This document shows, in pieces, positions 2,743-22,524 of a DNA stretch of 64,000 nucleotides. Each line of letters opens with the position of its first letter. The stretch's first letter is position 1. The DNA is from a virus (Duplodnaviria; Caudoviricetes), in the IMG/VR virus record IMGVR_UViG_3300033463_000005, positions 32,001-96,000 of that record. The stretch is one strand, 5' to 3'. The position numbers and the translations under genes are program-made. Under the pieces are notes generated by a model. That model saw only the letters and a list, made by a program, of their open reading frames with translations. It searched no databases and was not told the DNA's origin.

Positions 2743-2754
2743 AACATGAAAGTA
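2743..2754 (+). promoter_or_regulatory. Late-type phage promoter AACA-N6-TA
   Basis: AACA TGAAAG TA matches the AR9 late promoter consensus. The final A coincides with the first base of the downstream RNA closing stem. Confidence 0.6.
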
Positions 2755-2931
2755 ATCCGGAATGTGTTTCGAATCGTTACACCACGTGAATCTTCTCTCG
2801 AAAGATTGGTTACCTGACCCAATCTTTGGTTCACGCAAAATGTTGAGATTCCATCATATGCGAGTCATGATGGGTGTGTTCCTCCGAACCTCCGAGCACA
2901 ATGCCATTCTCGATTAACAACATTCCGGATT
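2754..2931 (+). ncRNA. Candidate structured small RNA 1 (multibranch, anti-SD loop)
   Basis: A 12-bp closing stem (2754-2765/2920-2931) encloses hairpins 2801-2827, 2851-2873 and 2875-2900. The last carries two CCTCC motifs. Bounded by a promoter and a terminator; no ORF in the track. Confidence 0.7.
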
Positions 2932-2942
2932 TTAGGGTTGTA

Positions 2943-2966
2943 AGTGTGGGGCTTCGGCCCCACACT
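2943..2966. terminator. GC-rich hairpin terminator
   Basis: AGTGTGGGGC-TTCG-GCCCCACACT. Confidence 0.75.
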
Positions 2967-2994
2967 GTATCCTATTATTCTGACTTTTCATATA

Positions 2995-3003
2995 TATATT
3001 ATT
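2995..3003 (+). promoter_or_regulatory. Early-type phage promoter TATATTAT
   Basis: The motif recurs upstream of non-structural genes and resembles the phiKZ early consensus TATATTAC. Confidence 0.6.
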
Positions 3004-3077
3004 AATATGAAGAGAGAATAAATTACTCTCTTTACAAAATTTTTACTGGTCTCTATGAGACCGGAAAGGAGAAAACA

Positions 3078-3413
3078 ATGTTTGTAGTAATATTAAAAGT
3101 TAGGCGGATGACCACAGAAAATGATGAGGTTGTCCTTGACGAAAGATCAGAGAGAGTAATCTCTCTGAGAGCCGATTTGGCTTCCGCAATTGTGGATGCC
3201 AAAAAAGCATCCGACAGTATATGGCTGTCCACATGCCTACTTGAGTATGAAACGACCATGGAATGCGAGCTTGGTGGGCGGTTGAACAACACATGGTGTT
3301 CGCCCGGCGAAAATCCCACAGAATTCGGTGGATATATAGACGATGGCGTCAACCACTTCAATTGGACGACCATTGTTGAGGAAGGTGACTTTTGGGAAGC
3401 AGAAGAATCTTGA
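3078..3413 (+). CDS. Hypothetical acidic early protein
   Basis: RBS GAAAGGAG, downstream of an early-type promoter. Confidence 0.7.
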   Translation: MFVVILKVRRMTTENDEVVLDERSERVISLRADLASAIVDAKKASDSIWLSTCLLEYETTMECELGGRLNNTWCSPGENPTEFGGYIDDGVNHFNWTTIVEEGDFWEAEES

Positions 3414-3470
3414 TTCCATTCTTCTGCTTCCCAGGAAATAACGATCAATCGGAACCGGATTGAAAGGGGT

Positions 3471-3857
3471 ATGTATATGAAACGATATATTTGCAATGTA
3501 GATATTGGGCATCACATTTATACCGAGCTCGGAGTTCTTTGGATATGTGGAGAAAATGGACTCTTCGTCACCTATGACGAAAATATTACGATATCGTGGC
3601 GGTATGATAATGGCCGTGCAACCGGTCCACGGTTGGAAACAGATGCCATTAGAAGAGCAGCCGAGAGAGTCTCGGCTGCGGCAAATGCTGGTGAGCTCAC
3701 AGAGAAGCACATTGCGGATCTCGTATCCGCAATGATCACGGGCAAATATGATATGACGGAGGATGAGAGATATATCCTCCGGGCAAAGCGCGGTTATTAC
3801 CGTGCCAGAACTGGTGAACTTGTAAAGGTTCACCAGAGGAAGAGAAGGGGCGCTTAA
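3471..3857 (+). CDS. Hypothetical early protein with basic C-terminus
   Basis: RBS GAAAGGGG; ends in a terminator hairpin; contains the 22-nt match to candidate sRNA 2. Confidence 0.65.
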   Translation: MYMKRYICNVDIGHHIYTELGVLWICGENGLFVTYDENITISWRYDNGRATGPRLETDAIRRAAERVSAAANAGELTEKHIADLVSAMITGKYDMTEDERYILRAKRGYYRARTGELVKVHQRKRRGA

Positions 3858-3878
3858 TGCGCCCCACTCTTTTTTTTT
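3847..3878. terminator. Terminator between convergent genes
   Basis: GGGGCGC-TTAAT-GCGCCCC followed by a T-run. Confidence 0.7.
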
Positions 3879-3880
3879 GT

Positions 3881-6016
3881 TTAAAATGTCTGATTGACGT
3901 CATAGAAGAATGATAGATCAGATACAGAAACCTGCTGATCCAATTCTGATTTTTTTGCAATACCAGCGTATTGATTTCTTTGATATCCATATTCGTCGCG
4001 ATCATTTTGACCAATCACATGCATTGGGTCTTGAGATGTTAAATCACGCAGCATTTGATTTTCAAATGCATACGGATTTGCATATGGAATCATATTGTTG
4101 ATTTGTTCGACTTCTAATTCCCGGTCATATTCTTTGACAACTTGTTTTGCATTTTTAAATACACATAATGTTTTGTCAATGTTAAACCGTTCAATTTTGT
4201 ATCCATAATAGAAAACATATAGCACATGGTTGTATGCCATGACCATGTCATCATGGAAACCGGTTGCTGCTTCAACTTTTCCATTTTTAGCACGGACGAG
4301 ATTCGTAATATCCCGTGCAAGATATCTTGTGCACAGCAGATGCGTATAATCTTTCACATGAAGCTTCAATAAGTCGAACATATTCTTTCTGATTTGTGGT
4401 GTGACGTATGTTCCAATATATCCTTTTTCTTTTGCTTTCCGTTTCATTGTCATTTCCGGAGTTTCGTATTCTGTAACATTCTTTGCCATATCCAATTTTG
4501 GATCATGATAGAAGCGATGTTCCAGATGTGATTCCTGAATGAAATCGACAATCGCTTTACCAATGGAATTTGTTTCAACACAGAATACACCGGATGGACA
4601 TAGTTTTGCAATGTCCGTAATGATACGCATCAGATCCATCACACCGATATATGGTGAAATCAATTCACCAACGACTTCAAATGTATATGGATGCACAATG
4701 CAGATCGCGGTATTATCTCCATCACCACCAGCAGCAACGTCGATTCCGATTAGATACGGGATTGTGATATCGAAATACGGTGTATCGGAATTTAAATCGG
4801 TTACTTGTACTTGATGTTTGTATACATATAAGAAGAATTTCTTTCTTAAGAAGATTTCATAATCTGGCTGTTTTGTATTTTGTACAATGTAATCAATGTC
4901 TTTTTGTTCAAACAATACGCTGCCAGAACCACGGTATCTTTGTAACAAAACACCGCGTCGATACTCGTCTGTTTTACCAAGATTTACAACCAATTCTTGA
5001 TGTTGTTGACGTAACCATTTATCATCTTTGCGTAGTTGTTTATAATTGAATTCTATATAGAAACCTGTAATCGGTTTACGAACTTCACCATTATCCAAAA
5101 CAACTTCATCGAACAATGCTTTCAATTCGTCTTCTGTCAAATCATATAACTTTTCACTGAATGTTGGAGTTGCTTCAATCATTCGTAATGCATCACGACC
5201 TTCATCGGTTTCCAAATCTCCAGGTGTAGAATACATCATGATGCATGTTCTACCACCGACAGCACGAATGATATTACGTGCAGATGTAATAGCTGGTGCG
5301 CCGCCTTCCATAACATCTGCGAAGTGTGGAATATATTCATACTCATCGAATGCACCTGCTGCGGAAGTCGCACCACGTAATGCATCGCGAGCTTTTTCTT
5401 TGGAATCAGATTGTGCCAATACAGCAAGTTTTGTTTTATGTGCATCATATATCAATGACTTTGGTCCAGGCGGTTTTGTTTTTTCATACCATGGATTCAG
5501 ATATGAAGGTAATGCATAAACATAATCACGGAATAATGTTGCATTCTGTAAACAGCGTTCCAATTTCAAATGCATCATTGGAATTGTTGCATTCTGATAT
5601 TCGAACAGCATCATGTATTCCAGGATAATGGTACACCATGTCGTCTTGTGTGTCTGACGCGGTTGACATAGTTTGAAATCAAAACTGTGAATGAAGCACC
5701 AGCATATTGCCAATGATGCTCGTGTCAATATTGGTGGGACATTACCAGCACCGATGACGGGAACACGTGCAATCTCTCGAAAAAAGAACCATGGATTCTT
5801 TTTACATTCCACAACAATTCTTCCAATTTCTTCGGCTTTGATATCACTTTTATATGGATCGATATCCTGAACGTTTAAATTCGGATATGCGACTTCTAAC
5901 ATGAAATACCAATTCTTGATACCAAGTGTTTTTAATTCTTGAGCAGTTGTTAAGAATGATGCGTTCTTTGTTCCAAAGTCGTAAAACTTATTTCCAATCT
6001 TAACAATTTTACTCAT
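3881..6016 (-). CDS. terL: Terminase large subunit
   Basis: Walker A-like PRQTHKTT, Walker B FDEYE, STPG coupling motif, nuclease GIDVAAGGDGD, ETNSIG, HDDMVMA. Start placed after RBS GAGGAGGT. Confidence 0.9.
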   Translation of the reverse strand: MSKIVKIGNKFYDFGTKNASFLTTAQELKTLGIKNWYFMLEVAYPNLNVQDIDPYKSDIKAEEIGRIVVECKKNPWFFFREIARVPVIGAGNVPPILTRASLAICWCFIHSFDFKLCQPRQTHKTTWCTIILEYMMLFEYQNATIPMMHLKLERCLQNATLFRDYVYALPSYLNPWYEKTKPPGPKSLIYDAHKTKLAVLAQSDSKEKARDALRGATSAAGAFDEYEYIPHFADVMEGGAPAITSARNIIRAVGGRTCIMMYSTPGDLETDEGRDALRMIEATPTFSEKLYDLTEDELKALFDEVVLDNGEVRKPITGFYIEFNYKQLRKDDKWLRQQHQELVVNLGKTDEYRRGVLLQRYRGSGSVLFEQKDIDYIVQNTKQPDYEIFLRKKFFLYVYKHQVQVTDLNSDTPYFDITIPYLIGIDVAAGGDGDNTAICIVHPYTFEVVGELISPYIGVMDLMRIITDIAKLCPSGVFCVETNSIGKAIVDFIQESHLEHRFYHDPKLDMAKNVTEYETPEMTMKRKAKEKGYIGTYVTPQIRKNMFDLLKLHVKDYTHLLCTRYLARDITNLVRAKNGKVEAATGFHDDMVMAYNHVLYVFYYGYKIERFNIDKTLCVFKNAKQVVKEYDRELEVEQINNMIPYANPYAFENQMLRDLTSQDPMHVIGQNDRDEYGYQRNQYAGIAKKSELDQQVSVSDLSFFYDVNQTF

Positions 6017-6100
6017 ATCATACACCTCCTCGTGTGATGTGATTTATAATCGATGTTTGATGGCATATTGATAAACATGACGTTTTGTATAACAAAAAAA

Positions 6101-6131
6101 TATGCGGGTATTGTGTGTGAATACCCGCATA
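6101..6131. terminator. Hairpin terminator
   Basis: TATGCGGGTATT...AATACCCGCATA with flanking A-runs. Confidence 0.7.
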
Positions 6132-6149
6132 CAAAATAGATGTCCGTGA

Positions 6150-6347
6150 TTATTCTTTACAGAATGGATCCGATGACATCGATAATTGATGTATATGTTG
6201 CAACAGTTGGGTGTTGTCATCTGTCAGAATATGACAGACGGTTTTTAACATAACATCAATGCTTTTGTTTCTGGTTGGACATGCGATCTGAATGGGTTCA
6301 AATTCAGATCGCCCAACCACCATCGATTGACTCATATGATTCACCAC
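6150..6347 (-). CDS. Small hypothetical early protein
   Basis: RBS GAAAGGTGG; TATATTAT promoter at 6370-6377 (-); own terminator. The true start may be a few codons downstream. Confidence 0.55.
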   Translation of the reverse strand: MVNHMSQSMVVGRSEFEPIQIACPTRNKSIDVMLKTVCHILTDDNTQLLQHIHQLSMSSDPFCKE

Positions 6348-6394
6348 CTTTCATGTGTGATTCATATGAATAATATATATAAATAAAAAATATA

Positions 6395-6420
6395 ATATGG
6401 GGGCCATCGGCCCCCATATT
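6395..6420. terminator. Hairpin terminator
   Basis: ATATGGGGGCC-ATC-GGCCCCCATAT. Confidence 0.75.
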
Positions 6421-6448
6421 TCAATTCATGTGCACGATCTGATATCCG

Positions 6449-8662
6449 TCAGGAGTATTGTTTTAATTGTTGCAGAATTGGTAAGAGTTGCGTGAATCGC
6501 TCATAGATGGATTCAATATAATCACGTGAGCATCCTTCAAACAGATTGGTTTCGTCGATCATTTTATAGAATTCTATCATGTCTACGAATGGATGTGATT
6601 CTTGATAATACATGAAATAGGAATGCATGATCAAGAAGAATCGAAGATCCGGAATGGATACATCGATTTTCACATTATTGATGTAAACAGGATACGTTTT
6701 ATCAACCGCGCCAATTGTTGAAAATCCAAAGATGTCTGGACGTAATTTGATACCCATAAATTTGAGCGTATTCTTCAGGTTATCCAATTGTGGGAATTGA
6801 TTGTACTTCGACAGATCAACACCCATATCATTCAGCTGCGACATCAGAATGGAATTCTCTTCATATTGTGATCCACGGAAATATGTTGTGATTTTTGAGA
6901 AATCCCGAACACCAACTCCAGCGAGGAAATTGTATGTGTCATATTCACCAAATTTCACGGGGTTATCGGAATAATGACGGAGATTCTTATTGAACTGATG
7001 TGTCTTAACAGGTTGATCATAAAGCGTTGTACGACCAGTCGAAACTGCGGCCAATGATTTAGAAGGCTCCTGCTTTAACACCCAAGTATACTGGAATCCG
7101 ACTGGATATTTATCATCCAATTTGACCCAACGTTTATGAAGCTTTGTGAATACATTATAATGCTTCATAATATCCGGGTATTTATCATATGCTTCCAGAA
7201 TTGCGTCACGAATGCAAACTTCATTAAACGGTTTGATTTGAATAATGTTTCCATTTGTCAGAATGTCATTGATGACAGCATTCGGATTCTCGGCATATAA
7301 CCGGCGAATTTCATCCGCTTGTTGTGGATTGAAGATTCCGACGAAGTCAGAAGTAATCTTCACAATGTCATCATTGGAAGCACCGTCATGATGCATTTTT
7401 GCAATATGTTGATTCATGCGATCCATCATGAACGTCATGGAACCTTCGTATGTTGCGAATGCAATGATACGGTTTGGAACCGCCAACGCATTTGCTAACA
7501 TATGAATCGGTCTACCATCATCCGTTCTCGGCATATCTTCCGTCGGAATGATTTTGGAAATAACGGATTTGTTTCCGTAACGTCCAACGACTTTCTGACC
7601 AACGGCAATCTTCATGGGTTGTAACATCGTGAATTTGATAATGGTATCCGCAATGTATTCCTTTGTAACCCATGTTGAATGATTCAAATACTTTTCTGCT
7701 TGATGGTAGATATCCAGCAGCGAAGTATCATCTTGAAATTTATCATCAAGCAATGCGGAAATATATGCATAGATGTCAGAATACCATTGACGAATTTGTG
7801 TCAGATACATGTTGAATTGCTCGTTCTCAACATCAACATTTGAAAAGATATCAATATCTACAACAGTTCCATGTGAGAAGTAATTCGTGTCATTGATATG
7901 TGGGATGGATGCTTCTGCAAATGTTGATACATATGAATTCTCACGAATGGAGCATAAGATGTTATCCTGCACCTCTTCACCAATATTCGGAAATGGTTTG
8001 TATTCTCCGTCTCTGCCATAACGGTTCAACAGGAATGATTTCTTTGACACATTTACTGTGACAATGTCAACCATATCATATTCCAATGCTTTTGCGGCAT
8101 CCGAAGAAATGATCAACGAATCTTCTGTTAATTGTGGAAGAACCGCATATGCCATTCGAAGATTCACACCAGCACAGTAATTGTCATTTACATATGAAGA
8201 TGATTGTGCAATTGCAGCGCCCTTCTTCAACACATCTCCTTCACGAATCTGTTGAATGTAATTCTTCATTCTGAATCCATATTTCTCAACAAGATTCACG
8301 GCCGGTTTATAAATCTTACAAATGTATTTTCCCGTCGCTAAATTCTGAAAGATGTATGCAATTGGAGAAAATGGTGCATTTGGGAATTTTACAAACTTTT
8401 TCATCAATTTGTAATCGTCAGTTGCACGGACATTCCATGATGAACGTTTTCCAAATTCATTTTCTGCACCGGAGAAAATCATAGGGAATTCCGGATTCCG
8501 CAGAACCAATCTCTGTGACACATGCTTCACCATCATTCCACCACGTGTTGTAGAGATCTTTTCAGGAAATCCCATTGCAGACATTCCAGTTAGTGACAAC
8601 GGATCGACATCAGCACATCTCCGATCGATATCCGATGCATTATTCATAACTTGTTTCGGCAT
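6449..8662 (-). CDS. Multisubunit RNA polymerase beta subunit, C-terminal half (probably non-virion RNAP)
   Basis: GVNLRMAY, TEDSLIIS, GQKVVGRYGNKSVISKI (compare GDK..GRHGNKG), MPRTDDGRP, PVKFGEYD. Early-type TATATGAT promoter at 8749-8756. Confidence 0.9.
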   Translation of the reverse strand: MPKQVMNNASDIDRRCADVDPLSLTGMSAMGFPEKISTTRGGMMVKHVSQRLVLRNPEFPMIFSGAENEFGKRSSWNVRATDDYKLMKKFVKFPNAPFSPIAYIFQNLATGKYICKIYKPAVNLVEKYGFRMKNYIQQIREGDVLKKGAAIAQSSSYVNDNYCAGVNLRMAYAVLPQLTEDSLIISSDAAKALEYDMVDIVTVNVSKKSFLLNRYGRDGEYKPFPNIGEEVQDNILCSIRENSYVSTFAEASIPHINDTNYFSHGTVVDIDIFSNVDVENEQFNMYLTQIRQWYSDIYAYISALLDDKFQDDTSLLDIYHQAEKYLNHSTWVTKEYIADTIIKFTMLQPMKIAVGQKVVGRYGNKSVISKIIPTEDMPRTDDGRPIHMLANALAVPNRIIAFATYEGSMTFMMDRMNQHIAKMHHDGASNDDIVKITSDFVGIFNPQQADEIRRLYAENPNAVINDILTNGNIIQIKPFNEVCIRDAILEAYDKYPDIMKHYNVFTKLHKRWVKLDDKYPVGFQYTWVLKQEPSKSLAAVSTGRTTLYDQPVKTHQFNKNLRHYSDNPVKFGEYDTYNFLAGVGVRDFSKITTYFRGSQYEENSILMSQLNDMGVDLSKYNQFPQLDNLKNTLKFMGIKLRPDIFGFSTIGAVDKTYPVYINNVKIDVSIPDLRFFLIMHSYFMYYQESHPFVDMIEFYKMIDETNLFEGCSRDYIESIYERFTQLLPILQQLKQYS

Positions 8663-8776
8663 AATAGATACTCCCTTCCGTAACATAAATTGTATTTGTT
8701 AGTTACAATGCTTATGATATTAAACACAATCATTGTACATACACGGAAATCATATACATGCCAAAATAAAATTAAT

Positions 8777-8804
8777 ATATGTGGGGGCATATGCCCCCAC
8801 ATAT
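8777..8804. terminator. Hairpin terminator
   Basis: ATATGTGGGGGC-ATAT-GCCCCCACATAT. Confidence 0.75.
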
Positions 8805-8811
8805 ATTACCA

Positions 8812-9666
8812 TCATAGAACCGATGCGACGTTTCGAATAAATGTAACTGCTTCAGATTCTGTATGAATCTTCATATCAGCACATGCATATGATGCATTCA
8901 GATAAACACCCAGAACAATGAAGATATCGGATTTGATTGTGATATTGGTGAACAAGCGTTTGATCAGATCATCCAAATCAAACTTCGGAACGAATTCATC
9001 TTCCGTCGTCATATAGAATTTTGTGATCATCTGATAATCAGGTCCGAAGAAAAGTAGATCATCATACTTGTCCATTTTCTCCAGATCAATCTTGCTCCGC
9101 ATCAGATAGTTATTCAAATCTTCATAGGAAACTTCTCTTGCAACATATTCAATGACAGGAGTCATATTAGAGAAGATTTGAATCCGAATGCGTTCAATCT
9201 GATCAATATACTTGAATAGACAATAATAAATGAAAATGTCATCGATGACATCGTCCATTGTAACTTTATTGTCATTCAATGCGACAATAACCGGATGTGT
9301 TTCTCCGAGAGTATGACGCAGTTCTTCCGGCGTGACTCTGGATTTGATTCTACCGTATTCCGGAACGGTTTGATTTGTGACAAATAGCTTTGTCTTTTTC
9401 GGTTGACGTTCCGTGGATTCCGGTTCTTCTACTGGTTTATCATCATCGGTACATGGAATGAATGCATCCAATGGTAATGTCTCTAGTTCAATATCCCATG
9501 TGAATGCTTTGTAATACTTCGTATAATCATCACGTGTTAGAATTGTATGACGTCCATTCAATAATCGAATGTTTTGGAAAAATACATCACACGAAGAAAT
9601 CAACATCTTGTGTCGTTCCAGACGTTTCTCGAATTCTAATACAGATGCTTTTGGAATCATAATCAT
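8812..9666 (-). CDS. Hypothetical protein
   Basis: 284-aa ORF with RBS; overlaps the upstream stop codon. Confidence 0.75.
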   Translation of the reverse strand: MIMIPKASVLEFEKRLERHKMLISSCDVFFQNIRLLNGRHTILTRDDYTKYYKAFTWDIELETLPLDAFIPCTDDDKPVEEPESTERQPKKTKLFVTNQTVPEYGRIKSRVTPEELRHTLGETHPVIVALNDNKVTMDDVIDDIFIYYCLFKYIDQIERIRIQIFSNMTPVIEYVAREVSYEDLNNYLMRSKIDLEKMDKYDDLLFFGPDYQMITKFYMTTEDEFVPKFDLDDLIKRLFTNITIKSDIFIVLGVYLNASYACADMKIHTESEAVTFIRNVASVL

Positions 9667-9854
9667 GATTGTGATCTTCCTTCCATTGTGTTTGATTGCT
9701 GCCTTGCATTATTTTTATTCTCGTAATATTCATTTCGAATTGGTTGATAATTCTCGACAACATACGAAATTCCATTACGTTGTATGAAAACATGAACGAA
9801 GTCGTTCAACCGAATTTGTTGAACGACTTCGAATGTCGTGATCGTGGCCACCAT
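9663..9854 (-). CDS. Small hypothetical protein
   Basis: RBS GAAAGGA; ATGA overlap with the next gene. Confidence 0.55.
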   Translation of the reverse strand: MVATITTFEVVQQIRLNDFVHVFIQRNGISYVVENYQPIRNEYYENKNNARQQSNTMEGRSQS

Positions 9855-9892
9855 ATGATTCAGATCCTTTCATAATGAATATTTTTGTTTGA

Positions 9893-10120
9893 TTATGAAA
9901 GTTCATCGACCAGATCATCAATTGCCGTATCATGAAATACCTGACGTGCATGATTAATCGAATCTGTATGCGATGAATTCATCGCCTGCATATTCTGTTT
10001 CGCTTGATGTTCTTTCTGTATCTTTCGAATCTCTCGGAGACGGTTTACGAATTTTCGTGGCATTCGTAAGAGTGTCTCTATTGGCAAACATCGATTGAAT
10101 AAGTCACCCAATTCAATCAA
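9893..10120 (-). CDS. Small partner of the baseplate/tail assembly protein (possible frameshift extension)
   Basis: LPIETLLRMPRK resembles the small ORFs that follow T4 gp26/gp51-like genes; lies in the -1 frame of the upstream gene. Confidence 0.55.
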   Translation of the reverse strand: MIELGDLFNRCLPIETLLRMPRKFVNRLREIRKIQKEHQAKQNMQAMNSSHTDSINHARQVFHDTAIDDLVDELS

Positions 10121-13796: not shown

Positions 13797-13822
13797 TATG
13801 TGGGGGCTTTCGCCCCCACATA
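13797..13822. terminator. Bidirectional hairpin terminator
   Basis: TATGTGGGGGC-TTTC-GCCCCCACATA between convergent genes. Confidence 0.75.
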
Positions 13823-13832
13823 CCATCTTCGA

Positions 13833-14948
13833 TTACTCGTTATCTTTTTTCTTGATGACCGGACGATACGGGTCAGCAATAGAGGTATAACTACCTTGTG
13901 GGTCGTTATAGATACGAGAGTGATCAGCAGGTGTGATTGCAGCTTCCGGTTTCGCCGCACGAACAACATTACGCTGCTCGGCTTCGAATACAGGAATGTT
14001 ACCGACACCAGACTGAACAGCATCCAGATCAGGACGTCTACCCTTATTGAACATATCGGTGTTGATATCACCATATGTTGTCGGGTTCGCAGTCGTGAAG
14101 AATGCATCGCCAGCACCAGGATTGAAGTTGAGCTTGTTGCCAAAGATCGCAAACTGTTGAACATATCTTGCAGCAAGGTCATTGACATATGCAGACTCGA
14201 CGAACTGACAGTTGTATGTCAGTGTAAGTGTCTGCAGATTAGATTGACCCTGACCATTATGATTGAAGAGATCATATCCAACCTTTGCAGTCGGAATGCA
14301 ACCAAGTGCCATCAGAGCACCCTCAACACGTGCACCAGATCTATCGAGTGCAATGATGAGGAATTCTGCAACTTCCCATGCAGGGGATGGCTCCAGTGCC
14401 AGAGAAGATCCGCCACCGTTTGCCGGCATGAAGATACGCTGCGGAACTTCATTTGCATCAACAGAACCTGCAACAAGACCCTGATAATGTGTGAGACCAG
14501 TGATCTCATCAGCAATACCATCAATCCACATATTATGGAAGTTCGCTGCAGGACGACCCTGAAGTTCAGGAATCGTGATGCTCAATTGTTGGTTATTGTT
14601 CGCATTCTGAACAGTCGGAATGGCGATGCTTCTTGCAGCAAAACCACCCTGCAGGTTCGTGAATGCCAGTGAGTGATCACCAGGCTGAACCTGAATGCCA
14701 GTATTGTAGAATTCAACCAACTTCTTGTATGTCGCAAATTGAGTGTTGGTATATGCATCTCTTCCGTCACCGAAATAATGCATCAAGAAGAAAGGACCGC
14801 GATACATGACACAGATAACACGGTTTGTTGTCTCGGGGTTTAGACTCCGGAGTGTATGAACATCCGGAGTCAAACCGCCGAGCATACCTGTATACTGGGA
14901 GAGATCTCCATTGTATTCGCGAATACCAGTTTGAAGGCTAATCGGCAT
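13833..14948 (-). CDS. Probable tail tube protein
   Basis: Directly downstream of the sheath gene; beta-rich; strong RBS. Assignment rests mainly on synteny. Confidence 0.55.
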   Translation of the reverse strand: MPISLQTGIREYNGDLSQYTGMLGGLTPDVHTLRSLNPETTNRVICVMYRGPFFLMHYFGDGRDAYTNTQFATYKKLVEFYNTGIQVQPGDHSLAFTNLQGGFAARSIAIPTVQNANNNQQLSITIPELQGRPAANFHNMWIDGIADEITGLTHYQGLVAGSVDANEVPQRIFMPANGGGSSLALEPSPAWEVAEFLIIALDRSGARVEGALMALGCIPTAKVGYDLFNHNGQGQSNLQTLTLTYNCQFVESAYVNDLAARYVQQFAIFGNKLNFNPGAGDAFFTTANPTTYGDINTDMFNKGRRPDLDAVQSGVGNIPVFEAEQRNVVRAAKPEAAITPADHSRIYNDPQGSYTSIADPYRPVIKKKDNE

Positions 14949-14973
14949 AATCGTTTACTCTCCTTTCTGTAAA

Positions 14974-17900
14974 TTAGCTGGAACGTCTGTTGACATTCAC
15001 GATGACCGGGATCCGGAGAGTGATACCACGGAATGTGACGTTCACATAGCAGACAACAACCTCACCACCGTCGATTGGATCGATGTCGCGAGCAAACTCA
15101 ATTTGAAGTGATTCAACCAAGTTGCCAGCCCAGTTGGAGAACATGTTGTTGACTTCATCAGAGATTGTCTTCAGCACAGAATCATCCGTATACTCAAACA
15201 GCTTCTCTTCCAACTTGTTCTGGAGCATATAGCAGAGTTGAGAGAGTGTTCTCATATTGGATTCCTGGAGCAGGTCTGATGTCGAAGAAGATCTCATGAG
15301 CGTGCGCTGAGATTTACGAACGAGGTTGCCGTTCACATCCGGTACCCAAACGTTACCACCAGCATTATACAGAAGCTCTCTGTAATCCCAATCTGTGACG
15401 TCGAGATCCGGGAAGAAGGAGAGATATTCGGTTGGACGAATCATTGTATAGTTGCCAGTGAACGGTTTGTTGACCGTCGTGGACTTGCAGTGTCTTGCCA
15501 GATTGTCTGCAATTCTCTTGACGAATGTGTATGGGTTGCCATCTGCTGCAGAGACATAACCACCAATATCCCAAGAACCGTTCGGGTTATCGAAACGCTT
15601 CAGGAAGGAATTGTTGATTGCAGTTGCAGAGATGGAATCAGACATACCACCATCAAGATGCAGTGACAGGCCATAACCAGGACCGAGCGGACGCTTTGAT
15701 TCTGGCATGCCATAGTAGCAACGGTACACCATCAGATCATACATTGCAGCCTTAACGTCAATGTCAGCAGAATCCCAAGTGATGATATTCGGATGGAGCA
15801 TAACTTCATCTTTCTCATCTGCAGTGAAGATTGTGGAAGCATTGATCAATTCAGCCGGAGTGTACTGAATCGACGGAAGTACAGTCTGTCCAACGATTGT
15901 GTTCGTACCACCGTCAAACAGATATTTTGCCGCGCATCTGACAGGAGACATGATTCTCGGATCAAGTTGACCGCGATATGCACGAACAAGCAGTTGTGAA
16001 TATCTCCACTTGAACTCGATATCATTCAGAGCATCATCGAAGAAACCGGTGTAACCATCGTGGAGTTTCACACCACCATAGTTCGAAGTGACGTTGATGC
16101 CGTAGTTATTGGAGTAATAATCATTCGGAATCACGACAGCGGTTTCTTCTTGTACACGGAAGATGGAACCAATGGAACCAGTCACCATGTAACGAACGAT
16201 GTCCTTCGGAATGAAGTTGTCGCCAATGACCTGTGTGAAGTCATTCGCTGTGAATGCGAAGTTTGTCACCTTCACGATTTCGGTTGCTGAAGAATCATCG
16301 GTATAACCGGATGCACTCTTCACAACCATCCTGACGAATTTGTCGCTCTTCTGGAATGCATCTGCTGCAGCCAGATAGTAGTAATCACCAGCAACCTGAT
16401 CGAAGTATCTCGTGTGATTATCCTGGGTGAGTTCAGTGGTGTATGCAGCATCCGAATAGAACTTTCCATCTTCGGTCTTGTAATAACCAGCAACATCTTT
16501 CGTGACGAGACGATATGTGCCAGCAATATCATCAAGATCTTGCATGTTCGGTTCTGCAGCAGTACCATAATTGATGAACGGATGATTCTTCGCGTTATAT
16601 TGCTGCAGACGAACAGTACCTTCTGATGTTGCATAACCATCGAGCAGAGAAACGATCTTCTGACCGATGTAATATGTATCAGTAGTCCATTCCGGAGCAG
16701 TATCACCGACAACAGGCTTGTATTCAACATTATCGCCACTACCAGTTTTCACGAAGTAGTTCTTATAATGATCAGCCCAATCAGAAGGTGCAGCATTCAG
16801 TAATGTATACTGATAGGATTCAAACGCATACTTTCTGTCAGTACCGACAGTTGACATATAGGTGAGTTGTTCCTGGGAGAAACCACTACCAGATGTCACA
16901 GCGCTCTTTGGCTGATAGTACTGGAAGTCATCTTCACTGACCTGGAAGACATCAAACTCGGTACCAATCACATCTGCATCAACAGAGACATTAGAAGGAA
17001 CAGCACCATACTTCTTGGTTGCAGCAGTAACTTCAACCAGTTCATCCAGCTTCGATTCAATGTTAGAAGCATCGATCGGAGTCTCGGTATACGGAACGAC
17101 ATACACTTTCGATGCAGTATCATCAAGATCGATGTAGGTGCTTCCGATTGTGATGTCAGGAGCCTGTTGACCAGCAGGTGGAGTCAACTCAGTAGACAAT
17201 GTGACCAGATTCGAATGCTGAACAGCATCCCAATTGATCTTGCTGTAGATATCACCTGTCAGCTCGTCAACGCTGTCAAGTGCATTGACAACGAAGAGCT
17301 TCCATGATGTGTTATTGGTATCTTCTGTATCAACACCAACCACATGCTTTGCAATGATATCACCGAGGTGAACAGAACCGTTGTCAAGCTTTCTCTTCAA
17401 TGCTGCCGTGATGTCATCTGTGATTGCATTGACATCAAAGATTGCACTCAGCGTTGCCGGAGTGTTATTGTTGTTCAGGAGTGAATTGGTTCTGATTGTG
17501 GTAATTGCACCACTGAACTGATTCACACCAGTAACAACATACAAGAACGGATTCGTCATGGAGGATGTGCCAGAATAGAGATAAACATCACCAACATAAG
17601 TCGTTGAACCATCACCATTCACACCCTTTGTCATCGGAAGCAGCTTGTCATTCAACAGCTGCGGAGCATTCTTGTTTTCCTCTGTGGTGTAGATGCAATT
17701 GGATGCAGGAAGCATCTGAATATCAGCAGAACGCATATCAACCTGGAAGAACGGAAGCTTCACAGCTTCATCAGTTCCACCATAGATATACAGACCAAAG
17801 ATCGGATCAAACGTATTGATGTTCATGAATGTGAACACTTCGCGCTGATAATCTGTGATCAGACTGCCGTCAGACATATTGACGAGATTCTGGTAGTTTG

Positions 17901-18753
17901 CACGATACTCATTGTAGAGTTCGCGAACTGCAGCTTCATTCACAAAGTTGACAACAACGGAAGAACCATCGACACGACGTTTCATCGCAACATTAACGCA
18001 TTCAACTGCATCGTCACGATCACCGTTGTTTTCATTGATCAATGATGCGAAATACTGTTCAACGTATACGCTTCTGGTTGTGTCATATGTGGAGAACATA
18101 TAACGAACATTTGCAGGACGTTTACCCTGAACAGTCTGGTTGATCATCGTCGAATAGACATTATATGCAGAACCACGACCAGCAGAGATGTTGACCATGA
18201 ATGCACGACGCTTCCACGGAATCTGGTACGGATCATTTGCAGCAGGTGCGACTTCACCAGCAGCAGCTTTCACGATAGCAGCATTCAGACGTTCTTTATT
18301 GCTGTAATTTGCAAGAGAACGATTCTGCATCAATGTTGCGTTGTCGAGTGTGTTGTAACGGACATGCATTTTCTGCTCATCCGGAATCCAACGCCATTCA
18401 ACTGTCACACAAGAATACGCATAACATGCATCATCCGGTGTAACACGCATCAGCTTGACCGGTGCACCCTGTTCAATCAAAGATAATGGATATGTGATTG
18501 TTTGTCCATATTTTTGAATATCACTTGTGGCAAGATTGCCGAGACCGAATGCAACATTCAGAACATCTGAACGTGTGACATTGATCATCTTTCTGTCTTC
18601 ACCCAACGGCGTACCGACAACAACAATGGTTCCATACAGAGATGGATCGTCCGCCGTCAAGACACCGAGCTCACCCGTGTACGATGAGTTATCCACGATA
18701 TGGATTAACACATGCGGAAACGGATATTTCAGACCAAACTTTGTCTCAAGCAT
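14974..18753 (-). CDS. Tail sheath protein (1259 aa, large insertions)
   Basis: N-terminal YPFPHVLIHIVDNS. C-terminal sheath signature SQRTL...LLQESNMRTL...LFEY...CYVNVTFRGITLRIPVIVNV. CACA-N6-TA promoter at 18847-18858. Confidence 0.85.
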   Translation of the reverse strand: MLETKFGLKYPFPHVLIHIVDNSSYTGELGVLTADDPSLYGTIVVVGTPLGEDRKMINVTRSDVLNVAFGLGNLATSDIQKYGQTITYPLSLIEQGAPVKLMRVTPDDACYAYSCVTVEWRWIPDEQKMHVRYNTLDNATLMQNRSLANYSNKERLNAAIVKAAAGEVAPAANDPYQIPWKRRAFMVNISAGRGSAYNVYSTMINQTVQGKRPANVRYMFSTYDTTRSVYVEQYFASLINENNGDRDDAVECVNVAMKRRVDGSSVVVNFVNEAAVRELYNEYRANYQNLVNMSDGSLITDYQREVFTFMNINTFDPIFGLYIYGGTDEAVKLPFFQVDMRSADIQMLPASNCIYTTEENKNAPQLLNDKLLPMTKGVNGDGSTTYVGDVYLYSGTSSMTNPFLYVVTGVNQFSGAITTIRTNSLLNNNNTPATLSAIFDVNAITDDITAALKRKLDNGSVHLGDIIAKHVVGVDTEDTNNTSWKLFVVNALDSVDELTGDIYSKINWDAVQHSNLVTLSTELTPPAGQQAPDITIGSTYIDLDDTASKVYVVPYTETPIDASNIESKLDELVEVTAATKKYGAVPSNVSVDADVIGTEFDVFQVSEDDFQYYQPKSAVTSGSGFSQEQLTYMSTVGTDRKYAFESYQYTLLNAAPSDWADHYKNYFVKTGSGDNVEYKPVVGDTAPEWTTDTYYIGQKIVSLLDGYATSEGTVRLQQYNAKNHPFINYGTAAEPNMQDLDDIAGTYRLVTKDVAGYYKTEDGKFYSDAAYTTELTQDNHTRYFDQVAGDYYYLAAADAFQKSDKFVRMVVKSASGYTDDSSATEIVKVTNFAFTANDFTQVIGDNFIPKDIVRYMVTGSIGSIFRVQEETAVVIPNDYYSNNYGINVTSNYGGVKLHDGYTGFFDDALNDIEFKWRYSQLLVRAYRGQLDPRIMSPVRCAAKYLFDGGTNTIVGQTVLPSIQYTPAELINASTIFTADEKDEVMLHPNIITWDSADIDVKAAMYDLMVYRCYYGMPESKRPLGPGYGLSLHLDGGMSDSISATAINNSFLKRFDNPNGSWDIGGYVSAADGNPYTFVKRIADNLARHCKSTTVNKPFTGNYTMIRPTEYLSFFPDLDVTDWDYRELLYNAGGNVWVPDVNGNLVRKSQRTLMRSSSTSDLLQESNMRTLSQLCYMLQNKLEEKLFEYTDDSVLKTISDEVNNMFSNWAGNLVESLQIEFARDIDPIDGGEVVVCYVNVTFRGITLRIPVIVNVNRRSS

Positions 18754-18889
18754 CAGGATATCTCTCCTTTACTATAGATTTTAAATTGGCTATATTATGA
18801 AGATCTGGCATGAAGAATCGCAATTCATGCAGATAAACCTCACAATTATCTTTTTGTGTGAAGGCGCATTTGGACACGTGATATAAATG

Positions 18890-18916
18890 AGATATGGGGG
18901 CAAACGCCCCCATATC
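18890..18916. terminator. Hairpin terminator
   Basis: GATATGGGGGC-AAAC-GCCCCCATATC. Confidence 0.75.
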
Positions 18917-18919
18917 GTA

Positions 18920-19888
18920 TTATAAATCTCTCTTAAATTTAACCTTGTACACCTGCATCAAATCATCTGTCGCAGATGAATTCTCACCATCCCGGACGAC
19001 ATCGACAATCTTTGTATCCGGTTTCGGATAATCGGGAAGTAGTTCTCCTGATGCAGAATATGTAATGAAATCATAATCAGAATCTGTATCACCAAGAAGA
19101 ACATATGTTGTTGGGTTATCTTTTTCATATTGCACAGTTGGATTAATAGACTGCGCTTCACCGATAATATCATCTAATACCACAGAAGCTTGATCTGGAT
19201 TTACCGTTGGGAAATTTGTAGATGCTGTAGCCGTGTCAACTTGTGTTTGTGATGGATTCATATCGAAGATTGTATCCATAATCGTCCTTCCCATTTCAAA
19301 TGGAGTCGAAGGTCTTCCGCCAGATACTTGATTCGGATTCGCTCCTTGTCCCGACTGTTGCTGTTGCTTAATTTTCAATTCAGCAATGTTTTTCTTAATT
19401 CCAATCTGTTCTTTATTGATTGCGGTAATTGCGGAACGAGCAGATGTCAATGCTTGCATTGCTGCAATGTCATCTTCATTCAATCCAAATTTTCCTTTGT
19501 CATTTAAGCTCTCCAGCAGTTTCCGTTCAAATACACGGATCACTTTAATTTGATCCGCAGCCAGTGTTCTCAATGCCGCAATGTCAGATGTAAATATCTT
19601 ATTTGGATCTAAACGTTCTTGTAGTGGTCCAAGTTCCAACTGGGATGATAGCTTCTGCATGATATCAGATGAAGCACCCCAGTGTCCACTTGCATATGGT
19701 GAAATATATCCATCGATATTTGGATTAAATTTCGGACGTTCGGAAAATTGTGCATATCGATCTAACCACACATGTGGATCATCTGCAGGACGATCCCATT
19801 CAGCTTGTGGTTGTGCTTGCATTGTTTCCGCCACTTGCTCGAATGATTGCATTTGATCTGCTTGACGGAATGAATCTAACATACTCAT
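18920..19888 (-). CDS. Hypothetical coiled-coil protein
   Basis: 322-aa ORF, RBS GAGAGGAG. Confidence 0.8.
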   Translation of the reverse strand: MSMLDSFRQADQMQSFEQVAETMQAQPQAEWDRPADDPHVWLDRYAQFSERPKFNPNIDGYISPYASGHWGASSDIMQKLSSQLELGPLQERLDPNKIFTSDIAALRTLAADQIKVIRVFERKLLESLNDKGKFGLNEDDIAAMQALTSARSAITAINKEQIGIKKNIAELKIKQQQQSGQGANPNQVSGGRPSTPFEMGRTIMDTIFDMNPSQTQVDTATASTNFPTVNPDQASVVLDDIIGEAQSINPTVQYEKDNPTTYVLLGDTDSDYDFITYSASGELLPDYPKPDTKIVDVVRDGENSSATDDLMQVYKVKFKRDL

Positions 19889-19919
19889 GGAGATTCTCCT
19901 CTCAATATACTATTATAAA

Positions 19920-19998
19920 ATGATAGAGAGGGTGGAGGATGTTAGGAGGTTGACATATCACGGGCAAATATGATATGAATGGCAGCCCTCTCTATCAT
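19920..19998 (-). ncRNA. Candidate structured small RNA 2 (or 5' leader of the 19888 gene)
   Basis: 13-bp closing stem 19920-19932/19986-19998; inner hairpin CATATCA/TGATATG; two anti-SD motifs on the minus strand; AACA-N6-TA promoter at 20009-19998. Confidence 0.6.
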
Positions 19999-20035
19999 AT
20001 CCTTTTGTTCAGATAAATTCAAATATCAAAAAAAA

Positions 20036-20062
20036 ATATGGAGGGACATTGTCCCTCCATAT
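20036..20062. terminator. Hairpin terminator
   Basis: ATATGGAGGGAC-ATT-GTCCCTCCATAT with a T-run on the minus strand. Confidence 0.75.
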
Positions 20063-20065
20063 CGT

Positions 20066-21571
20066 TCATTCCATTTTGGTTAAACCATACAAACCATTCA
20101 ATGCTTCTTTCTCTATCGGGAAAGCTGCACTCAAATCAGGACGAATATTATATGCTTTTGATACCATCAATTTTTCTGCTTGTTCATTTGCTTCATCCGA
20201 CCATATTCCAGTACTCTTAACCGTATCACCATCGTAGTCGCCATTCAAATTAATCAGTCTTGCATTTGACATCTGCAACACATCAATGAACGATGTTGAA
20301 GCAACAGCATGGGATGCTTGTGGATCTACTATTGGATATGTCTGATACGTTTCACCCATGAACTGAACTGGGATTGTATTATTCGTTGACAACACATGGA
20401 TCTTTGTAAAGAATGCACCAAGATAATCACCGATTGGATATCGAACGGTGTAAACATGCTTGTTTCCTTTGACACAAGCGTTGTAGCAACATAGATAAAT
20501 AACGTCAGTTAATGTCAATTCTCTTGTGATCGGTTCTTTCGTTTTCAAGTTCATGGCAGAGAAAGTGATGGGTCTCTTATTCTCTGGATCCGCATAAAGG
20601 ATTCTAAATCTACTACCAGGGTTTTGCATAAAGATTCGCATCAATTCTTCCATCGCTCTATCATCATAGATATTATCAATGTCCGAACGTTTGATATCAT
20701 CCGGACTTGGATCAAATGAAACGATATTATCATATGACAAAAATTGTTTCATTTGGAATTTTACAAATGGATGGAACATGGACACGAGTGACATCATTGG
20801 ATAACCCGTTCGATAGATACCGATCACTGGATTATTGGATCGATAGGATGGTGCAGAAATGACATTACGAACAGTTCCAACTGTATTCTTTGCCAATAGA
20901 TTCTTTTGTAAGAATCCATTCTTTGTGCCACAATATTTATGGACATACGAGTATACTTCGATTACAGCATTTTGAATCTGGTTGTATACCTTATATACAT
21001 TTGCCGTTGTATGTGCTGTGACACTCTGATATCCAAGTAGCTTAATATAAATAGAATTCAATTCGGATTTAACGGGTCTACCATTTCGCATACCAGTTGG
21101 ACGCATTGCGGGTGGAAGTACCAAAAGCTTATCAATGAATAATAAACGTTTTGGAGTCTTGATTAAAATCTCAATATTTTCTTCTCGACGAGATTTCATT
21201 GTTTTCGCAATATCAATCTGATCCCAGATCTCATATAGATCTTTTAAACCACAATACTTACCATTTTCATTTTCGTGTAAGACACCGTCTACAAGATCAC
21301 ATTTAATTTCTGCAAATGCCAACTTTCGAATGATTCCACCAGATCGACCGATGATAGTTTTTGCAATATGTGGATTAAATACGTGGATTGGTAATTTCAG
21401 ATATCCACATTTGTATTTTCTTTCATCTTCCGTTTGTCCGAATATTTCCTCTGAAAATAATCCGGTTGGATTCCATTGGTTTGTTGATCGATATATTGCT
21501 GCGGATGTGACTTCTTGTAAATTATTAACTTTGATATCTTGGTCGATATCATACAATCCCTGAATCTTCAC
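20066..21571 (-). CDS. RNA polymerase beta' subunit, N-terminal/catalytic part (probably virion RNAP)
   Basis: GLFSEEIFG, VLPPAMRP, RNVIS, RYP, catalytic NGDYDGD. GTG start after AGGAGGT. Late-type AACG-N6-TA promoter at 21611-21600. Confidence 0.9.
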   Translation of the reverse strand: MKIQGLYDIDQDIKVNNLQEVTSAAIYRSTNQWNPTGLFSEEIFGQTEDERKYKCGYLKLPIHVFNPHIAKTIIGRSGGIIRKLAFAEIKCDLVDGVLHENENGKYCGLKDLYEIWDQIDIAKTMKSRREENIEILIKTPKRLLFIDKLLVLPPAMRPTGMRNGRPVKSELNSIYIKLLGYQSVTAHTTANVYKVYNQIQNAVIEVYSYVHKYCGTKNGFLQKNLLAKNTVGTVRNVISAPSYRSNNPVIGIYRTGYPMMSLVSMFHPFVKFQMKQFLSYDNIVSFDPSPDDIKRSDIDNIYDDRAMEELMRIFMQNPGSRFRILYADPENKRPITFSAMNLKTKEPITRELTLTDVIYLCCYNACVKGNKHVYTVRYPIGDYLGAFFTKIHVLSTNNTIPVQFMGETYQTYPIVDPQASHAVASTSFIDVLQMSNARLINLNGDYDGDTVKSTGIWSDEANEQAEKLMVSKAYNIRPDLSAAFPIEKEALNGLYGLTKME

Positions 21572-21680
21572 GATAATACCTCCTTGACATGTAGGATGTT
21601 ATCGAGACGTTTTTATATTCATCCATTACAGAACAAAAAATAAAGAGCCGAAATGTTCCCGCATTCCAGCTCTTTATTTT

Positions 21681-21836
21681 TTATTTCGACCATGGTCTTG
21701 CAATGGATGATTTACTCTTTATTGCTTTATGGCAATAGCGAGATTCAATCATCTGTGCAGTTTCCATGATCGATTTCCGTGTGTTCGATGCTTTGGGGTT
21801 GCAGGGAGACACACGGATAATGGATGATTGGTGCAT
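21681..21836 (-). CDS. 51-aa basic protein, absent from the ORF track (MHQSSIIRVSPCNPKAS...RPWSK)
   Basis: Strong RBS GGAAAGGAGGTG; followed by a hairpin and T-run at about 21635-21682. Confidence 0.6.
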   Translation of the reverse strand: MHQSSIIRVSPCNPKASNTRKSIMETAQMIESRYCHKAIKSKSSIARPWSK

Positions 21837-21878
21837 TCTGACACCTCCTTTCCAAACGTGGGATTAGATTGGGGCGCA

Positions 21879-22163
21879 TCAGCGCCCCAACCGTCCCATG
21901 TTCTTCTTCCACCGAGCGATGTACTCGCTCGGCGTTTCTTTATTTCTGATTGTCACCCAGAAGACAATCAGAATATTCGCACAGATCATCCAAGGATGAT
22001 CTTCCGCGATGGGGTTGTACCCCTCACGGATCAGATAATACAGGGATACAATCGTATTGATCCCTGTGAACCCGAAGAACATTAACCAGGATACAAACCA
22101 ACCAATGTTCTTCCAATTGAGGTGTCTTTTCACAGACGCCTTTCTTTCTAGCTTCTTAACCAT
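21879..22163 (-). CDS. Small membrane protein (94 aa, two predicted TM segments)
   Basis: Start MVKKLERK after RBS GAAAGGAG; two hydrophobic stretches; early-type promoter at 22227-22234. Confidence 0.65.
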   Translation of the reverse strand: MVKKLERKASVKRHLNWKNIGWFVSWLMFFGFTGINTIVSLYYLIREGYNPIAEDHPWMICANILIVFWVTIRNKETPSEYIARWKKNMGRLGR

Positions 22164-22259
22164 TTTGATCTCCTTTCTGTGACATGAGTTGAAATTTATT
22201 TGTTTAAAATATCTCATGTCAATATAATAATATATATATATGTAATATGAAAAAAGAAG

Positions 22260-22283
22260 AATGTGGGGCAAAAGCCCCACATT
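22260..22283. terminator. Hairpin terminator
   Basis: AATGTGGGGC-AAAA-GCCCCACATT with a T-rich tail on the minus strand. No annotated gene leads into it. Confidence 0.75.
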
Positions 22284-22404
22284 CAAATCAGGGTGATTCT
22301 TACCCGATGAGTTAAGGTAAGAATCGGCTAGGAGGCAAGCAATGGCCCAATGAGTTCGGAAAATCTTCAACGGCAAGTGAAGATTGGGTTCATCAGATGA
22401 ACTT
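22284..22404 (-). ncRNA. Candidate structured small RNA 3
   Basis: GACA-N6-TA promoter at 22415-22404; hairpins 22388-22402, 22362-22385 and 22295-22325; single-stranded CCTCCT; ends at the 22260-22283 terminator. Confidence 0.55.
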
Positions 22405-22524
22405 ACAATTTTGTCGGTTGAATATGTATATTATTAAAATGATTTCGGAGAGATTTAACATAATAAATAGAATCCGAAAACAAACAATTATACCGTTTAT
22501 CAATCATAAGGAGGATACAGACAC

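Follow-up and report, generated by a model that had tools for sequence, protein, structure and literature searches.

Do three intergenic loci of an uncultivated giant phage encode small RNAs (sRNAs) that expose a complement of the Shine-Dalgarno (SD) sequence, and do they form one regulatory system? The loci lie in a stretch of 64,000 nucleotides (nt), hereafter the window, which comprises bases 32001-96000 of a single contig of 258,509 bp with a GC content of 38.8% (IMG/VR record IMGVR_UViG_3300033463_000005). An earlier note on this DNA had proposed that all three loci share one design, i.e. a late promoter, a folded RNA with unpaired CCUCC motifs and a 3' terminator, and that their RNAs silence early or host mRNAs or sponge an RNA-binding protein. 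The analysis described here divides the loci. Loci 1 and 3 are, with high confidence, genuine, conserved and structured sRNA genes, termed sRNA1 and sRNA3, and they represent two unrelated, clade-specific RNA families. At the sequence level, the three marks of an independent unit (a promoter, a terminal GC-rich hairpin and no conserved reading frame) were found together at loci 1 and 3 and not at locus 2, which is probably a lineage-specific structured leader rather than an sRNA gene. The idea of one system built from three equivalent loci receives no support; taken as a whole, the earlier observation is partly confirmed and its interpretation partly supported.

The phage is an AR9-like jumbo (giant) phage that is known from metagenomes alone. 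Its relatives are available only as metagenomic contigs from IMG/VR and from metagenome assemblies. Besides the genome of this phage (G000), three near-complete relatives (G001, G002 and G003) were used, and the other relatives are contigs with L numbers.

sRNA1 and sRNA3 among related phages

Locus 1 follows the helicase gene and contains these features:

2743..2754, plus strand: promoter AACA-N6-TA of sRNA1, directly after the helicase stop codon, with A2754 as the predicted +1
2754-2975, plus strand: sRNA1 unit, ~180-220 nt
2754..2930, plus strand: sRNA1 body, fold z = -5.7
2755-2766 with 2919-2930, plus strand: closing helix P1 of sRNA1, 12 pairs
about 2850-2874, plus strand: hairpin P3 with a GCGRG loop
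about 2875-2900, plus strand: hairpin P4, with CCUCC in its loop at 2881-2885 and 2889-2893
near 2904-2909, plus strand: CCAUUC motif of sRNA1
2943..2966, plus strand: 3' GC-rich terminator-type hairpin with a weak U tract; homologous hairpins in all relatives
2985..3011, plus strand: AR9-type early promoter ATATATATTAT-N6-G, which serves an accessory early cassette; a 27-30-mer repeated at several genome sites

Inside P1, sRNA1 carries a CU-rich stretch and the hairpins P2, P3 and P4. Homologues were found in nine distinct relatives, plus two truncated ones, always right after a helicase gene whose product is 76-92% identical. The members share the order P1, CU-rich single strand (CCUUCUCC or CUCUCUCG), P2, P3 with its GCGRG loop, P4 with a UUCCUCC loop and a conserved CACCAUUC, followed by a hairpin of the GGGGC-N4-GCCCC type and then an early promoter. 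In the nine relatives AAC(G/A)-N6-TA stands at the same place, and its +1 always abuts P1. A covariance model generated from one relative alone recovers the copy in the window end to end (24 bits, E = 0.003). Because whole-RNA alignments with MAFFT and RNAalifold misaligned the inner helices and a single-sequence covariance model put divergent members into inserts, the inner helices were compared hairpin by hairpin and P1 alone was formally counted. Its pairing amounts to 98.1% over 108 cells, with changes on both sides in four of the 12 pairs; the covariation score was reached by none of 500 shuffles, and slid controls pair at 28-51%. The stems of P3 are wholly different among members (UCCAUCAU, GUUGUUGCG, UGCCGA, UGCCGCG), yet always pair around the GCGRG loop, and the P4 stems vary while UCCUCC stays invariant in the loop of nine homologues. 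An ATG near position +8 is not preceded by an SD and the conserved nucleotides fall into different frames across the homologues, so that sRNA1 is non-coding. Two degenerate DNA-pattern scans of IMG/VR for further members returned, after filtering, only five that were already known.

The post-helicase position is occupied differently in other phages. The sRNA1 unit is absent from some relatives with an 89% identical helicase, such as L006, and more distant relatives possess different short RNAs at this place, again with ACCUCC or UCCUCC. Some relatives contain a second, unrelated promoter-to-terminator RNA unit in tandem (L007 5075-5235, L012 2140-2375 and L005 5500-5960); one lies between helicase and sRNA1, that of L005 lies upstream of the gene for an RNA polymerase (RNAP) beta'-like protein, and each exposes ACCUCC or CCUCC. 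The body of sRNA1 is single-copy in the genome, as is that of sRNA3, and only the terminator and early-promoter modules repeat. A stretch of 16 nt at 2838-2853 (19 nt with one mismatch) is identical in RNA sense to G000 205744-205759, within the minus-strand gene G000 205459-205854, a match for which about 0.02 chance occurrences are estimated.

Locus 3 lies on the minus strand, next to the divergent topoisomerase gene:

22404..22415, minus strand: promoter GACA-N6-TA of sRNA3; the divergent topoisomerase gene has its early promoter back to back with it
22404-22250, minus strand: sRNA3 unit, about 150 nt
22285..22404, minus strand: sRNA3 body, fold z = -5.3
22388-22402, minus strand: H1, AGUUCAU/AUGAAC, invariant
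22362-22385, minus strand: H2, variable stem with a GCCG loop
22331-22345, minus strand: single-stranded CCAUUG-N4-CCUCC
22295-22325, minus strand: H3, variable
22259..22284, minus strand: intrinsic terminator, 11-bp stem and U-run, one-directional

The unit is present in six phages with the same synteny, flanked by the divergent topoisomerase gene on one side and the RNAP beta'-like gene on the other. In all six, GACA-N6-TA followed by AGTTCAT is kept, as is the order of promoter, H1, H2, CCAU(U/G)G, (C/U)CUC(C/U), H3 and terminator. A model based on the window copy alone (R2) recovers the other five with E values of 2e-9 to 3e-7. In an alignment that was itself fitted to the structure model, pairing reaches 93.7% of cells, and compensatory changes occur in 27 of 36 pairs; H2 is 100% paired with compensatory changes in 8/8 pairs. 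None of these measures was reached in 500 shuffles, and pairing in slid controls amounts to 35-45%. From 22525 the topoisomerase gene runs in the other direction and no minus-strand gene lies upstream of 22404, and since the terminator is one-directional, the transcript must start in the divergent region. In AR9, the gap upstream of g145, the counterpart of the beta'-like gene that is annotated there as a part of the virion RNAP beta', measures 88 nt and leaves no room for such a unit.

The three RNAs are folded, as the earlier note had described, and fold better than shuffled sequences; loci 1 and 3 indeed have no convincing open reading frame (ORF), given that no frame is conserved in the homologues. 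Conservation of structure and CCUCC among relatives applies to these two loci, with compensatory changes, and fails for locus 2, which is absent. The CCUCC counts of two, two and one copies and their unpaired state were likewise as described: the pentamers have predicted unpaired probabilities of 0.77-0.99 against RNA-wide means of 0.34-0.50, with 0.77 and 0.92 at locus 1 and 0.81 at locus 3. In eight of eight sRNA1 homologues tested the values are 0.77-1.00 (RNA-wide means 0.32-0.42), and sRNA1 exposes a further stretch, UCUCC/UCUCU; the (C/U)CUC(C/U) motif of the six sRNA3 homologues ranges from 0.38 to 0.98. CCTCC is not over-represented in non-coding DNA. When SDs, terminator stems, tRNAs and miscalled coding sequences are set aside, the whole 258.5-kb genome has these five intergenic copies only, and the weight of the motif derives from its conservation in loops, not from its abundance.

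Another origin of the motif was considered, namely that CCUCC is the reverse complement of SDs that serve small ORFs on the opposite strand. Opposite sRNA3, AGGAGG-N6-ATG does occur in the window, and ORFs of 42 and 24 codons follow in G001 and G003. The window ORF, however, has three codons, the three sequences are unrelated and share no conserved frame, and the terminators and promoters of the sRNA3 region point away from them, while opposite sRNA1 either no ATG stands at a usable distance after the SD or the ORF has four codons. As neither frames nor lengths of small ORFs are conserved on either strand, this candidate was rejected and is regarded as extremely improbable.

The promoters can be compared with those of AR9, for which a late consensus of AACA-N6-TA/G, with the last base as +1, and an early consensus of AAATATATATTAT-N6-G have been determined (PMC5312081). 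Both types apply in this genome. AAC[AG]-N6-TA occurs in coding DNA at 0.14-0.17 per kb, about two-fold rarer than the N5 and N7 spacings (0.18-0.34), is enriched between genes at 0.40-0.52 per kb and stands 23-35 nt upstream of many SD/start pairs. Depletion in coding DNA, intergenic enrichment, a fixed distance to the start codon and agreement with the AR9 late consensus indicate that this promoter class is real, and the spacing-specific pattern across the genome supports its function. The three promoter-like 12-mers reported earlier are present at the stated positions; those of loci 1 and 2 match the AR9 late type exactly, locus 3 deviates by one non-consensus base (GACA), and the relatives of sRNA1 use AACG. 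Host sigma-70-like promoters are not enriched (71 found versus 69.7 expected). The early element ATATATATTAT-N6-G found 3' of the hairpins of loci 1 and 3 is repeated at many genome sites; it serves the early genes downstream and lies outside the sRNAs. As for the late timing of the RNAs, we infer it solely from their likeness to AR9 promoters.

Two further promoter arrangements were observed. For the subclass AACG-N6-(G)TAAC, which occurs genome-wide, the distance to the start codon is 26-30 nt, as at 21600-21611 (minus strand) before the RNAP beta'-like gene; this subclass may constitute a temporal class separate from AACA-N6-TA. The topoisomerase gene (22420-22524, plus strand) has an AR9-type early promoter plus AACA-N6-TA at 22479-22490, 35 nt before the ATG, which is the arrangement that AR9 uses for continuously expressed genes.

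Some qualifications apply to these findings. The window contains 57 matches to RACA-N6-TA where shuffles predict 95, a deficit that fits selection against stray promoters, and at such counts a lone match is not significant. GACA-N6-TA shows no intergenic enrichment, so that the promoter of locus 3 is backed only by its conservation in six phages. The claim of a 3' terminator, or a stem with a U-run, holds for locus 3 and fails for locus 2; at locus 1 there is a hairpin only, which has no canonical U-run, fails the U-run rule of the terminator scan and belongs to the GGGGC-N4-GCCCC class that stands after genes throughout the genome. In addition, sRNA1 is also the 3' untranslated region (UTR) of the helicase mRNA, beginning at the stop codon, and helicase transcripts must cross it.

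The last point leads to the alternative that the structures act in cis, sRNA1 as a stabiliser or insulator in the helicase 3' UTR and sRNA3 as a leader or insulator of the RNAP beta'-like operon, with CCUCC being incidental or pairing with a nearby SD after read-through. In L001 and L002 the beta'-like gene has its promoter and SD directly after the sRNA3 terminator, and locus 2 is clearly a leader. Against a role in cis, a dedicated promoter is conserved precisely where the closing helix begins in all homologues, no gene precedes sRNA3 on its strand, strong hairpin terminators separate both sRNAs from downstream genes that have promoters of their own, and close relatives such as L006 keep the helicase without sRNA1. 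A purely cis-acting role is distinctly unlikely, and independent sRNA genes remain the preferred reading of loci 1 and 3.

The probable structured leader at locus 2

Locus 2 and its complementary site involve the following features:

19998..20009, minus strand: promoter AACA-N6-TA upstream of the locus 2 hairpin
19920..19998, minus strand: locus 2 stem-loop of 79 nt, 13-bp closing stem and inner hairpin, fold z = -3.3
19945-19949 and 19934-19938, minus strand: two unpaired copies of CCUCC
19957-19978, minus strand: inner hairpin, a perfect 22-nt complement of mRNA 3735-3756
19905-19886, minus strand: SD and ATG of the late gene 19888..18920 (322 aa), 15-30 nt after the stem-loop
3735..3756, plus strand: 22-nt site complementary to locus 2, inside the accessory early ORF 3471-3857

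The stem-loop forms the first part of a 110-nt 5' leader of the late gene 19888..18920, and the terminator scan detected no terminator-like site at its 3' end or between the hairpin and the SD/ATG. In G001 and G002 the promoter is directly followed by the same TTGAGAG leader as here, with no hairpin, which in G001 visibly leads into the orthologous gene, and L003-L005 have a short spacer only where locus 2 would be. Since the hairpin is missing from the orthologous intergenic regions of relatives, it is regarded as a lineage-specific insertion.

The 22-nt complementarity raises the possibility that locus 2 is a separate antisense RNA, or a leader acting in trans, whose pairing cleaves or silences the accessory early mRNA 3471-3857. 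An exact 22-mer shared in this way is expected about 0.008 times by chance in the genome (an estimate), the target is a single-stranded linker flanked by two perfect hairpins (3709-3733 and 3757-3781), and both the target gene and the locus 2 hairpin are confined to this phage lineage. On the other hand, the 22-mer of locus 2 is itself folded into a hairpin, and the early cassette that holds the target (~2980-3870, two genes) is absent from L021, the closest relative, and carries another exact repeat, a direct repeat of 21 nt between the helicase 3' end (2669-2689) and the end of the early ORF 3078-3413 (3399-3419). The missing cassette and the short repeats suggest a mosaic insertion that may be bounded by short homologies, of which exact repeats could be recombination scars. 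Because of the absence in L021 and the second repeat, a functional antisense pair and recombination scars are not separable, and antisense action of locus 2 is doubtful.

Proposed pairing with translation-initiation regions

What, then, could sRNA1 and sRNA3 do? The leading proposal, to which we give somewhat less than an even chance, is that they are phage sRNAs which pair antisense with translation-initiation regions (TIRs) and lower translation; occlusion of the SD in trans, at about the same or slightly lower likelihood, would be the leading mechanism. In this model, the non-virion-type RNAP of the phage (nvRNAP) would transcribe both sRNAs from AAC(A/G)/GACA-N6-TA promoters, and the transcripts would start inside a 5'-terminal helix, which may protect them from 5' exonucleolytic decay in a Firmicute-type host, and end at a GC-rich hairpin. 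Each RNA presents a conserved single-stranded pyrimidine motif, a UUCCUCC hairpin loop in sRNA1 and (C/U)CUC(C/U) after CCAU(U/G)G in sRNA3, so that sRNA1 could pair with the SD alone and sRNA3 with the SD plus the AUG. After nvRNAP has become active, such pairing would reduce translation for a subset of phage and/or host mRNAs, and the best candidate targets of sRNA1 would be phage mRNAs with the extended SD GGAGGAA(AA)CA, foremost that of a conserved ~300-aa gene. Late timing, action in trans, SD occlusion and target identity are all features that we infer.

For sRNA3, the proposal draws on its layout. The spacing from CAU to CUCC is 6 nt in the window and G001 and 10 nt in L001, whereas G002, G003 and L002 have a small hairpin inside the spacer, without which the spacing is 5-6 nt. 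These 5-10 effective nt mirror the SD-N5-10-AUG arrangement, i.e. the motif reads as an anti-SD plus anti-AUG layout.

For sRNA1, the loop has its longest perfect complements in SD regions of the type GGAGGAA(AA)CA. In six phages, a single orthologous ~300-aa gene has an SD region perfectly complementary to the loop plus its 5' flank, over 10-15 nt overall: it is the top match in G002 (14 nt), shares the top rank in G003 (12 nt), is among the top five in G000 (10 nt), where the gene lies ~9.7 kb upstream, and matches over 15 nt in the phage of L008, 10+4 nt in G001 and 9+5+5 nt in the phage of L007. Between loop and TIR, the length of the A-run after GGAGG (2, 4, 3-4, 2) and a change from CAC to CAUC vary together. 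In each genome the loop flank corresponds to the 5-mer most often found after the SD, and more long matches arise from cognate loop/TIR combinations than from non-cognate ones. This tracking is suggestive support for pairing with the SD. A conserved hairpin GATATYC...GRATATC is located just upstream of the SD of the ~300-aa gene in all orthologues (G000 24745-24807; L057, L097, L098), which suggests that translation of this gene may be regulated.

Several observations argue against such pairing. CCUCC would pair with nearly any SD, which calls specificity into question. GGAGGAA-type TIRs represent 25-43% of GGAGG TIRs in the four genomes, the best-matching ~300-aa gene may simply have a consensus TIR, and the tracking perhaps reflects one or two independent events among related phages. 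The cognate pair of G001 is not the top-ranking one there, and the 5' flank of the sRNA1 CCUCC doubles as an arm of the P4 stem and is hence structurally constrained too. Duplex energies, computed for the sRNAs against all TIRs with genes grouped by early or late promoter, differ by <=0.5 kcal/mol between the two classes in G000 and show no preference; the suggestion that early mRNAs are the favoured targets thus receives no support. For sRNA3, no orthologous TIR has a CAAUGG/CCAUGG start context and this genome has none at all. The other conserved motifs of sRNA1 have no shared complementary target in the four genomes, and its conserved 15-nt CAUAAUACACCAUUC is not explained by SD pairing.

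These motifs raise the alternative that the RNAs are decoys or sponges, in which the exposed UUCCUCCUU would serve as a mimic of the 16S rRNA 3' tail or as a pyrimidine-rich protein site. The titrated factor could be an RNA-binding protein, a nuclease or toxin attacking the anti-SD end of 16S rRNA, or a ribosomal protein; otherwise the RNAs could form the structural component of a phage ribonucleoprotein. Along with the 15-nt element, the single-stranded GCGRG loop and the second CU-rich stretch of sRNA1 are conserved and unexplained by SD pairing, with no specific complementary partner in four genomes, and closed, multibranched RNAs whose loops are invariant are found more typically among protein binders than among simple seed-type sRNAs. 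However, no partner protein was recognized, the genes beside sRNA1 differ between relatives, and the loop flank changes together with the TIR sequences, which would be needless for a pure protein site. As neither the other sRNA1 motifs nor the anti-AUG context of sRNA3 have a partner, a decoy or protein role stays a serious rival, albeit an unlikely one, to SD occlusion in trans.

If SD occlusion applies, it could be extended to the rather unlikely scenario that sRNA1 mimics the anti-SD tail of the ribosome, co-evolves, through its loop, with the extended SD (GGAGGAA(AA)CA) of a small phage regulon headed by the ~300-aa gene and, together with sRNA3, forms an nvRNAP-driven post-transcriptional timing layer. 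We know of no such layer described for jumbo phages with their own multisubunit RNAPs.

Genomic setting and comparison with known RNAs

Genes for split beta/beta'-like RNAP subunits, a large terminase, a helicase and a type II topoisomerase lie in the window. Among named phages, the closest are the AR9/PBS1 group, Goe21, BpSp and Listeria phage LPJP1, with only ~30-32% identity of the 501-aa RNAP beta'-like protein, and nucleotide searches of INPHARED, near and distant, revealed no phage alignable at the DNA level. A search for tRNA and tmRNA genes found none; tRNA-like sequences were noticed at ~234-247 kb of G000. An exact direct repeat of 110 bp at both contig ends (G000 1-110 and 258381-258490) points to a terminal repeat or a circular or permuted assembly. 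The helicase gene is apparently split by a group I intron-like element (1353-1653, plus strand; exon ORFs 970-1395 and 1645-2742) that matches RF00028 with 21.4 bits (E = 0.0023), under the gathering score. Positions 1500-1565 are 80-85% identical to unannotated DNA of the Bacillus cereus phages LY2 and LBC2 and to Listeria phage fragments; in LY2 this DNA lies next to a portal gene.

Pyrimidine-rich hairpin-loop motifs that pair with SD regions, with no need for Hfq, are a feature of RsaE/RoxS, RNAIII hairpins and FsrA. Their motif is CCCC/UCCC as opposed to UUCCUCCUU here, these RNAs are host-encoded and stress-regulated, and the Rfam models of the three families have no match in the window. 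Closer in logic are the streptococcal cia-dependent sRNAs (csRNAs; CcnA-E), short, terminator-ended Firmicute sRNAs with an anti-SD plus anti-AUG stretch between stem-loops for which a block of translation initiation has been proposed and in part demonstrated (PMC3091779). sRNA3 shares their CAU-spacer-CCUCC logic, whereas in sRNA1 the CAU lies on the side of CCUCC that would not allow a continuous duplex of this type. Neither phage RNA has sequence or structure homology to csRNAs, which are driven by CiaR rather than phage-encoded under a phage RNAP promoter, and four of the six sRNA3 homologues have a spacer of 10-22 nt rather than 6 nt, three of these with a hairpin. Among phage RNAs, the c4 antisense RNA of P1/P7 pairs through its loops around a ribosome-binding site and blocks translation (PMC12197685); it belongs to a temperate phage, has a single target (ant), is processed from an operon transcript and has no likeness to sRNA1 or sRNA3 in sequence or context. 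Non-coding RNA candidates with no assigned function are reported for phiKZ and other virulent Pseudomonas phages (PMC10914365; PMC13282480), though these are mostly UTR-derived processing products defined by sequencing and not conserved families with their own promoter and an anti-SD loop.

The late units of the AR9 nvRNAP resemble these loci in having AACA-N6-TA/G with the last base as +1 and flanking ATATATATTAT-N6-G early promoters; this clade additionally uses the AACG-N6-(G)TAAC variant. The earlier remark that no described equivalent is known agrees with these results: none of the three loci matches Rfam 15 at the gathering score, with relaxed scans returning terminator-like chance matches only, the AR9 transcriptome paper treats mRNAs and antisense RNAs and never uses the terms 'small RNA' or 'noncoding' (PMC5312081), and jumbo phages go unmentioned in a review of phage sRNAs from 2025 (PMC12197685). 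sRNA1 and sRNA3 represent new RNA families of a known functional kind in a biological setting that is new.

AR9/phiKZ-type jumbo phages attract study because they run their own transcription, and to our knowledge almost nothing has been described on how translation is controlled in them. The two families, backed by covariation, provide concrete candidates for phage riboregulators in Gram-positive-type hosts as well as two new structured-RNA families for databases. They also extend the promoter logic of AR9 to a distant uncultivated clade, in which the RNAP beta'-like protein is only ~32% identical to that of the AR9 group. If the co-variation of the sRNA1 loop and TIRs holds, a virulent phage would here be using an sRNA to tune a group of its own mRNAs, which is rare.

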